Assembly (NCBI GenBank): GCA_964016885.1
Contig: OZ024748.1
Coordinates: 49,538,001-49,602,000, forward strand
Length of the DNA stretch: 64,000 nucleotides
Reading direction: 5' to 3'
From: Eledone cirrhosa
Taxonomy: Eukaryota
Positions 50,121 through 60,783 of the stretch are shown piece by piece. The position numbers were made by a program, and so were the translations under genes. The notes under the pieces were generated by a model that was given only the letters and a program-made list of their open reading frames with translations, was not told where the DNA came from and searched no databases. How positions within the stretch are numbered: position 1 is the stretch's first letter; each line of letters starts with the position of its first letter.

Positions 50121-50157
50121 ATTTTCTGATGAAGGACTAACGTTCGAAACGTTAAGA
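50121..50157 (+). ncRNA. Minimal hammerhead motif in a probable Penelope-like element 3' end (~49500-50245)
   Basis: TTTT-CTGATGA-A-GGAC-TAAC-GTTC-GAAA-CGTT-AAGA, with a palindromic AACGTT stem III as in dimer-type PLE hammerheads. Upstream WIWSFKPIG(MN) weakly resembles a GIY-YIG C-terminus. Confidence 0.6.
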
Positions 50158-59527: not shown

Positions 59528-59599
<72 letters not shown>

Positions 59600-59638
59600 C
59601 ATTAACAAATGGAAACTATATTTATAAAACCATATTTA

Positions 59639-59699
59639 TTTCATTATACATATTTCAAGGACACCAAAGCAAATTATGGTGCGCTTTCATCAGATAAAA
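59639..59699 (-). ncRNA. Hammerhead motif (family C)
   Basis: Minus strand: TTTTAT-CTGATGA-AAG..CACCA/loop/TGGTG..CTT-GAAA-TATGTA-TA-ATGAAA. Confidence 0.75.
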
Positions 59700-60124
59700 T
59701 ATAATATAGATCAGTTTTATAAACAAATATTGACATACCCTTAAAGAATGCAACCATGTCGGTTGGAAGCTCCCGGATAGTGGGGTTACTAATTTTATTA
59801 TTGGTCTATTATGCAAATTAGTGTCGGAAAGGTTTAAATCCCATACATTTAAATTAAGCCGTTGGAATAGGGAAAAAAAGAAAAGGAAAAGGAAAAAGAA
59901 AGAACGAAAGAAAAACAAAAGAAAAGAAAGAGAAAGAGAGAAAACCCTAAGTGATTGAAATATGTATAATGAAATAAATATGGTTTTATAAATATAGTTT
60001 CCATTTGTTAATATATTGTATTTTTACTCCAAAAATTTGTTGAGTGCTTTATATCAGTTATAAAAATATTTGTTTGTTGAATCCCAACAAATTAAACTTC
60101 TACATATACATATAAATATATGTA

Positions 60125-60165
<41 letters not shown>

Positions 60166-60171
<6 letters not shown>

Positions 60172-60743
60172 ATACTTTGGGAGGGTCATGTTTCCAATAA
60201 GAAACACCCGCACCAGTTGCTTTCACTTCAATTTATTATAATAAATTTATAAATTTAGGAATTTATAAATTTCCGGGTGGTTGGTTGGTTGGTTCCACAA
60301 CCAGATGGTTGTTTATATATTGTCAAAGTTCTTTCGTCACACATTCTGTGACCTCTTCAGTGACTGGGGGTTCTTTTCTTTGTTTTTTGTGCCTCTCCTT
60401 TGTTCTGTCCTACGCCATCTTCAAACAAGATGGCGTAGGACAGAACAATGGAGAGGCACAAAAAAAAACAAAAAACAAAGAAAAGAACCCCCAGTCACTG
60501 AAGAGGTCACAGAATGTGTGACGAAAGAACTTTGACAATATATAAACAACCATCTGGTTGTGGAACCAACCAACCAACCGGAAATTTATAAATTCCTAAA
60601 TTTATAAATTTATTATAATAAATTGAAGTGAAACCACTGGTGCGTGTGTTTCTTATTGGCAACATGACCCTCCCAAAGTATAACAATATCGGTTTCAACA
60701 CACGTTTTCAGATAAAGAATCTTGCTAAACAAATTCAGAAACG

Positions 60744-60747
<4 letters not shown>
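60166..60747. mobile_element. Head-to-head palindromic dimer of the family B element, with two hammerhead motifs (60322-60364 minus, 60494-60536 plus)
   Basis: ~255-bp arms meet at CGCCATCTT-CAAAC-AAGATGGCG; (TA)n on both outer sides. Confidence 0.9.

Positions 60748-60783
<36 letters not shown>

Follow-up and report, generated by a model that had tools for sequence, protein, structure and literature searches.

By comparison with its other copies, the mirror-image repeat at positions 60164-60747 of the window (the whole stretch of 64,000 nt of Eledone cirrhosa DNA that was analysed) is a pair of back-to-back ends of a very abundant protein-coding element of the Penelope type, here called family B. 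The stub as such is ordinary debris from Penelope-like elements (PLEs), one of the known kinds of PLE footprint. The repeat spans ~580 bases between two (TA)n runs and consists of a left arm (60164-60421, minus strand) and a right arm (60423-60747, plus strand). An original prediction had described it as a head-to-head dimer with further copies at 24923 and 32035 and with far ends in (TA)n; the two arms, the solo arms and their (TA)n ends were all located, together with a fifth piece (22659-22735) that was absent from its list. With +1 denoting the first A of AAGATGG, the features are as follows.

22659-22735, minus strand: short solo arm from +188 to the short 3' end, a different 5' end within the window
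24918-25173, minus strand: solo arm with the short 3' end, 5' end at +1
32035-32322, minus strand: solo arm with tail, 5' end at +1 abutting a (CA)n run
60104-60167, unstranded: (TA)n target microsatellite, left side (read from the sequence)
60164-60421, minus strand: left arm, a pseudo-LTR from +1 to the short 3' end, without tail (by sequence comparison)
60322-60364, minus strand: left-arm minimal type I hammerhead motif, predicted cut after 60326 (positions by offset from the right-arm motif)
60422-60426, plus strand: head-to-head junction, one extra base (60422) and then right-arm element positions -4 to -1
60423-60747, plus strand: right arm, a pseudo-LTR (-4 to +263) plus tail
60427-60435, plus strand: YY1-like motif AAGATGGCG, a putative promoter site immediately 3' of the 5'-end hotspot (-25 to +5)
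60494-60536, plus strand: right-arm minimal type I hammerhead motif, predicted cut after 60532
60664-60747, plus strand: codons 1-28 of the PLE ORF (84 nt, end of the right arm), which runs on in full units such as L099
60690-60747, plus strand: 58-nt tail lying between the two constant 3' ends, each of which falls at AATAT|CG in the most frequent full units
60746-60783, unstranded: (TA)n target microsatellite, right side

Several of the predicted dimensions hold for some of the arms. A common stop point had been proposed for the four long pieces: the left arm and the copies at 24923 and 32035 do start at the first A of AA(G/A)ATGG, while the right arm starts 4 nt earlier. The predicted ~70 nt between this end and the hammerhead fits the right arm, where the core starts at +72, and not the other window arms, where it starts at about +60; likewise, the length of ~320 bp applies to the tail-bearing arms, the left arm and the 24923 copy being ~260 bp long. 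The far end takes two forms: the short form stops at +263, the long form 58 nt beyond that point. The hammerhead motif is present in all four long pieces with the core variants that had been listed (CTGAAGA/CTGATGA and CUU/CUA). The description of the element as non-coding had to be abandoned, the last 84 nt of the right arm being the first 28 codons of an ORF, although a tblastn search of the 64,000-nt window with the reverse transcriptase-endonuclease (RT-EN) protein of the family gave no match.

A search of the own genome (3.0 Gb) returned 30 loci, and 12 of the 29 non-self best arms run upstream of AAGATGG into a shared sequence, namely a ~150-nt 3'UTR preceded by an ORF whose last part encodes the RT thumb, followed by a linker of the type CX4CX2C and by a GIY-YIG domain. 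This ORF encodes a YVDD core, and the GIY-YIG pattern VVY..C..C..YIGET..R..EH is found in natural copies; the suggested linkage to an RT/GIY-YIG ORF is thus confirmed. Locus L099 holds a whole unit (pseudo-LTR, tail into the ORF start, ORF, 3'UTR, pseudo-LTR) with a period of about 4,050 bp, and a tandem in L285 has a period of 4,062. The suggested solo Penelope pseudo-LTR that targets (TA)n is the part of the original prediction that holds, in agreement with the L099 unit and the (TA)n ends of the arms. The ORF is about 1,225 codons in length, its N-terminal part being long; every long copy seen is broken, none of the six long loci that were translated is fully open, and the placement of RT and GIY-YIG in one frame is a reading across copies. 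Pfam recognised RVT_1 in the family B protein below threshold and gave no GIY-YIG match. Pseudo-LTRs from partial tandems, an inverted truncated copy and a tail on one end, all traits of EN+ PLEs, are present. Genome-wide counts of exact 22-mers were 28,723 for a site close to the 3' end, 6,521 for the YY1-like motif and 470 for the tail-ORF junction (reversed controls 0 each; a rare variant of the junction gave 3 matches), so that short stubs far outnumber ORF starts. In four contig sets of one study, the loose ends of the arms continue upstream of AAGATGG as element sequence, the junction being unspanned.

Some of the loci carry further sequences of interest. L094, L097 and L099 have a variable Asn/Thr/His-rich low-complexity stretch in the N-terminal third of the ORF, which recalls the N-rich inserts described for rotifer Penelope (PMC3846280). 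L062:1281-2455 is a chimera in which a family B 3' part is joined to RT sequence from a sister family (about 72% identity). A neighbouring PLE of another type with a Neptune-like ORF lies at L061:3298-5154 (minus strand), and L064:779-2718 contains a Hydra-like PLE ORF with CxCX5C within an inverted repeat. Twelve 46-bp units derived from the tail-ORF junction form a tandem array at C1:132947043-132947570.

The 5' end, predicted to be fixed, proved heterogeneous. We used two overlapping samples, both from contig C1 only. For the first (3'-anchored arms), all 100 listed matches of a pattern at the 3' end, which follow one another along the contig, were mapped on the natural unit of L099; one arm extended past its locus, and internal duplications account for a few of the calls around -143. 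The second (motif-anchored arms) comprises 87 of the 100 listed matches of the YY1-like motif. The 3'-anchored arms end anywhere from +224 to -3735: 39 end before +51, 13 at +5 to -25 and 48 further upstream. Exactly at +1 (AAGATGG) end just two of these arms and one of the 87 motif-anchored arms, of which 63 run more than 25 nt beyond the motif, into the 3'UTR and ORF. Such genome-wide heterogeneity is what the original prediction had named as evidence against itself. In place of a fixed end there is a broad hotspot: 24 of the 87 motif-anchored arms have their 5' end upstream of the YY1-like motif by no more than 25 nt, at a density of 0.0126 compared with 0.0012 ends per nt (ratio 10, p 3e-12), and the corresponding figure in the 3'-anchored set is 13/61. 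A second end cluster lies at +51 to +77, the 5' half of the hammerhead (10/100 arms), while none of the 100 arms ends at +6 to +50, the 45 nt between the motif and the hammerhead (+6 to +77 corresponds roughly to window positions 60432-60515). A constant cDNA length behind the two end clusters was considered and rejected (tailed arms 4/13 and 3/13).

The hotspot is confined to the first pass through the pseudo-LTR. For the second pass we took 72 tail-ORF junction loci less one second unit of a tandem, leaving 71; the 46-bp array, which accounts for 12 of the listed junction matches, and the remaining listed matches were set aside. Eight of the 71 end in the tail or the last bases of the pseudo-LTR and 63 have the pseudo-LTR upstream; 53 of the 63 stay in the ORF up to the end of the examined DNA, which is only about 200-280 bp for 40 loci. 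Among the copies that pass the ORF start and reach +5, 0/43 end at +5 to -25 and one ends at -26 (0/43 vs 13/61, p 6e-4; 1/43 vs 24/87, p 3e-4), while elsewhere in the pseudo-LTR second-pass copies stop at ordinary rates.

The YY1-like motif is, as predicted, a reverse complement of the YY1 core GCCATCTT (core as given in PMC10620060), and in mouse L1 both the genomic 5' ends and the starts determined by RACE and CAGE are reported to cluster broadly near a YY1 core (PMC6454616, PMC10620060, PMC7778262). By this analogy we infer that hotspot copies would result from run-off at a promoter-set RNA start near the motif, so that the predicted internal promoter survives in a weaker form, as a broad 10-fold hotspot just upstream of the motif that is absent past the ORF start, and not as a fixed end. 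A pause, or microhomology set by the sequence, should act on both passes; the first-pass restriction is better matched by an RNA end that only part of the templates possess. The likeness to the mouse TF and GF promoters has its bounds, L1 being an unrelated element class whose starts were confirmed by CAGE and 5' RACE (PMC6454616, PMC10620060), and the promoter role in family B being putative. Neither YY1 in PLEs nor a 5'-end hotspot at a YY1-like motif in PLEs was found described in the open literature searched.

A rival of the same PLE origin, which we regard as unlikely though deserving of attention, holds that the hotspot is a copying artefact and not an RNA start: the cDNA would stall, switch template or fold back at a CA-rich low-complexity stretch. 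The hotspot does overlap such a stretch (positions -25 to -1 are CA/A-rich), several of the many fold-back junctions are perfect or join (TG)n/(TA)n, there is the other end cluster at +51 to +77, and microhomology may contribute to hotspot ends. As a proxy of the RNA cap, a G precedes 24/66 hotspot ends and 8/33 other ends, a difference that is not significant (p 0.26); at the ends exactly at +1 it is found in 4/6, two of which come from this window, some of these G's being templated by the partner arm. An artefact of copying is, however, hard to reconcile with the lack of any hotspot stop in the 43 second-pass copies, with the small share of ends at two further CA tracts, one near -55 (3/63) and one near -140 (1-2/57), and with the fact that 10 nt or less of upstream sequence suffices for 13/24 of the hotspot ends.

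The discrete ribozyme-bearing element of the original prediction, a non-coding retrozyme or SINE-like sequence with a fixed 5' end amplified by PLE proteins, is largely refuted and we give it hardly any credence. The start base shared by three of the four window arms, the lack of family ORF sequence in the window by tblastn and the preponderance of stubs over ORF starts would suit it; yet the 5' ends spread over 30 nt within the hotspot and over 4 kb overall, the junction partners differ in every copy, tandem arrays of the 320-bp unit are absent among the 100 arms, and the sequence runs on into the ORF at either side, belonging to the end of an RT/GIY-YIG ORF unit. In addition, hotspot copies are scattered over a tree of 82 arms (5 skipped), with 21 label changes compared with 19.7 after shuffling (459/500 shuffles as low). 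This spread through the tree argues against one self-copying short element, and a separate short subfamily was rejected on the same grounds. Non-LTR retrozymes are described as non-coding tandem repeats, every unit of which bears a hammerhead (10.64898/2026.07.22.740005); family B arms differ, occurring singly or head-to-head and running on into an ORF.

The template, the role of the hammerhead and the origin of the inverted repeats are the points of the PLE cycle yet to be settled. Fifty-four of the 100 arms have the short 3' end and 46 are tailed; (TA)n follows 47/54 and 42/46 of them, respectively, and target-site duplications are unreadable inside (TA)n. Head-to-head pairs combine one tailed and one tail-less arm in 27/28 cases (p 1e-7), and between the two arms of a pair (70 pairs, one of them entered twice) 37/599 subfamily-diagnostic sites are different, compared with 37% in shuffled pairs (minimum 26%). 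The longer 5' reach belongs to the tail-less arm in 14 pairs and to the tailed arm in 10, and is equal in 3 (27 pairs); since either arm may be the longer one, a simple snap-back from one cDNA is rejected as the only route to the dimer. We infer that a dimer arises in one event from one source, with one start site per strand. An anole Poseidon protein cuts and extends both strands in vitro, and its RT uses two internal start sites, one at either limit of the tail, for which ORF sequence further downstream is required (PMC11167929). Two other points of the same account go against the scheme proposed here: the Poseidon priming sites lack homology with the cut DNA, and the hammerhead can be dispensed with in vitro.

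We consider it likely that the feature represents head-to-head pseudo-LTR ends of an autonomous-type PLE, one of them tailed, left by one insertion on (TA)n, with a promoter-set start that gives stubs. The endonuclease would cut (TA)n on both strands, and both cut strands would prime reverse transcription on RNA from the same source, RT starting on each strand from a different one of the two AATAT|CG sites via ATAT microhomology; the two cDNAs would then join at their far ends to form the dimer. The internal promoter with its YY1-like site would set a broad transcription start, at about -25 to +5, and on linear RNA primed in the first pseudo-LTR the RT would run off this start, leaving stubs of 260-345 nt as in the window. 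Longer copies and seamless partial tandems would come from templates without that end, most likely a circle cut by the hammerhead and re-ligated, otherwise a read-through transcript. If priming needs the pseudo-LTR-ORF junction, linear RNA from the internal start gives only stubs, and long copies need a circle or read-through. A circular template has been proposed for PLEs (PMC4209133); both templates fit the genomic counts. Family B offers rules that can be counted in the genome (a single tail in each dimer, a common source of the two arms, a first-pass-only hotspot), which turn the circular-template idea (PMC4209133) and the L1-like YY1 promoter into direct tests.

The right-arm hammerhead is composed of a stem I of 4 bp, CUGAAGA, an extra G, a stem II of 5 bp, GAAA, a stem III of 2 bp with an AA loop, and CUU. 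Variants shared by at least five copies (a threshold set after viewing the table) occur in 142 copies at 6/12 free positions and at 0/31 core or paired positions (p 1.5e-4), the seeds used to collect the copies biasing slightly toward intact stems; this confinement to free positions points to selection on the hammerhead in the source elements. Rfam at gathering thresholds gave 0 matches in the window, which is no evidence either way because minimal hammerheads fall outside its coverage. The monomer MFE fold contains stems I and II only, and the cofold of two motifs gave no clean dimeric hammerhead; the two motifs of the dimer lie on opposite strands, so that no cis dimer is possible in one transcript. 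Minimal PLE hammerheads are reported to cleave poorly in vitro (PMC4209133). The hammerhead cut was rejected as the usual template start, as 5' ends are not piled up at the predicted cut (+95 in L099 numbering; 0/100 first-pass and 1/63 second-pass copies). The minimal PLE hammerheads described in PMC4209133 share with family B the short helix I, the extra base between 9 and 10.1, the G10.1-C11.1 pair, the tiny helix III and opposite-strand pairs 100-700 bp apart, whereas the loop 3 of family B (AA) is not palindromic and its helix II has 5 bp.

The AlphaFold model of the natural 648-aa RT-EN frame of L101 (81-row alignment; mean pLDDT 91) has 7lma as its top Foldseek match (E 2e-7). By predicted fold the family B RT is closest to telomerase RT: TERT entries rank first (human TERT, VIA, Z 15.8, rmsd 3.9, 319 aligned), with a group II RT close behind (Z 14.3). 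A PDB sequence search with the alignment found only weak bacterial RT matches. Between motifs A and B', at the place of the telomerase IFD, this RT carries an insert of ~70 aa; the IFD is the feature by which PLEs with an N-terminal EN have been linked to telomerase. The distance from A to B' is 131 aa in family B, as compared with 62 in the Neptune-like ORF of L061; a count by eye in Fig. S1 of PMC8557442 puts Nematis_Cr at about 63 and human TERT at about 118. In the model the insert has a pLDDT mostly above 90 (71-79 in one stretch), and it is likened to the TERT IFD by position alone. The region measures 126-144 aa with conserved residues in 125/125 scorable homologs (of 266 proteins), a uniformity that is partly due to selection because the homologs are best matches to the query. 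These 125 homologs, many of them partial, have the C-terminal EN pattern in 86 cases and the N-terminal one in 1; DKS is found in 64 and KDHK in 91. The protein search yielded 262 clusters (50% identity) at E <= 1e-30 and 1,592 at 1e-10; among the homologs with a name, a protein of Octopus vulgaris (70% identity) comes closest, and a sea cucumber supplies another.

The EN+ PLEs described in PMC8557442 and PMC3846280 resemble family B in having a single ORF with a telomerase-like RT plus a GIY-YIG at the C-terminus, a pseudo-LTR that includes the first codons and a hammerhead, partial tandems, a head-to-head inverted truncated copy, a one-end tail and (TA)n targets. They differ in the tail, which is of 30-40 nt as described there and of 58 nt in family B, and family B is set apart by the long N-terminal part of its ORF and the ~70-aa insert. 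As in the Nematis clade, family B combines a C-terminal EN and CCHH with a short CX2-5CxxC linker, whose CX4CX2CX7C form has the spacing of Nematis_C4 (PMC8557442); unlike Nematis, it has an A-B' insertion, and its RT motifs read DKS, KDHK, YPSI and GAIG instead of DK(R/G), KTHK, YTNI and LAMG (PMC8557442). With the Hydra clade, as described in PMC8557442, it shares the C-terminal EN, (TA)n targets, a canonical hammerhead and motifs of the DK(S/T), KDHK and YPSI-like type; Hydra elements are characterised there by a CxCX5C linker and by the lack of CCHH and IFD, whereas family B has CCHH, the CX4CX2C linker and the insert. By motif comparison, neither Nematis nor Hydra would accommodate family B as a whole, its linker spacing being Nematis-like and several of its RT motifs Hydra-like.

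The Naiad and Chlamys elements share the (TA)n targets and an insert at the IFD position, but their EN is N-terminal, their IFD is of 20-40 aa and canonical hammerheads are described as mostly lacking (PMC8557442); in family B the EN follows the RT in L101 and, by pattern, in the 86 homologs given above. The Poseidon element PAc of Anolis (PMC11167929) is similar in its two RT start sites within the ORF start that bound the tail, in the extension of both target strands (there in vitro) and in its AT-rich targets; it differs in that the family B start sites share ATAT with the target, and its hammerhead overlaps the ATG, whereas that of family B lies about 130-165 nt upstream of it.

Canonical PLEs are described as lacking the IFD (PMC8557442), and a 2026 preprint still lists eight PLE clades (10.64898/2026.07.22.740005). 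In the open literature searched we found no description of this RT lineage or of an insert at the IFD position in PLEs with a C-terminal EN. The insert probably marks an undescribed PLE branch, and this possibly undescribed RT lineage is the most novel part of the present work. We propose, tentatively and at somewhat less than even chances, that family B belongs to a large undescribed ninth PLE clade, with a C-terminal GIY-YIG, a Nematis-type linker, a canonical hammerhead, an ORF of about 1,200 aa and, at the IFD position, an insert of ~70 aa that is conserved, folded and longer than in any PLE of the compared alignment, and that its 28,000 arms would record the life cycle: a YY1-set linear RNA start giving stubs, a ribozyme-made circle giving long copies and two RT start sites for the two target strands. 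A diverse lineage (262 clusters) with a C-terminal EN and an insert of telomerase length would alter both the telomerase link and PLE classification, if a tree and a structural overlay confirm it. One protein of the search, P0111 (1,517 aa), has an endonuclease pattern ahead of the RT and may be a read-through tandem or a permuted form.

The window contains other repeats besides family B. Hammerhead-like motifs of the CTGANGA...GAAA type at 50126 and 59307 (plus strand) and 45399 (minus strand) are unrelated to family B and probably belong to other PLE families. An inverted repeat at about 59595-59660 and 59955-60025, spotted by eye, adjoins the (TA)n left of the dimer; similar text flanks a family B arm in L155, and it may be another two-armed insertion. 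Tandem arrays occupy 1-769 (78-bp units), 23939-24545 (198 bp) and 27422-29724 (90 bp).
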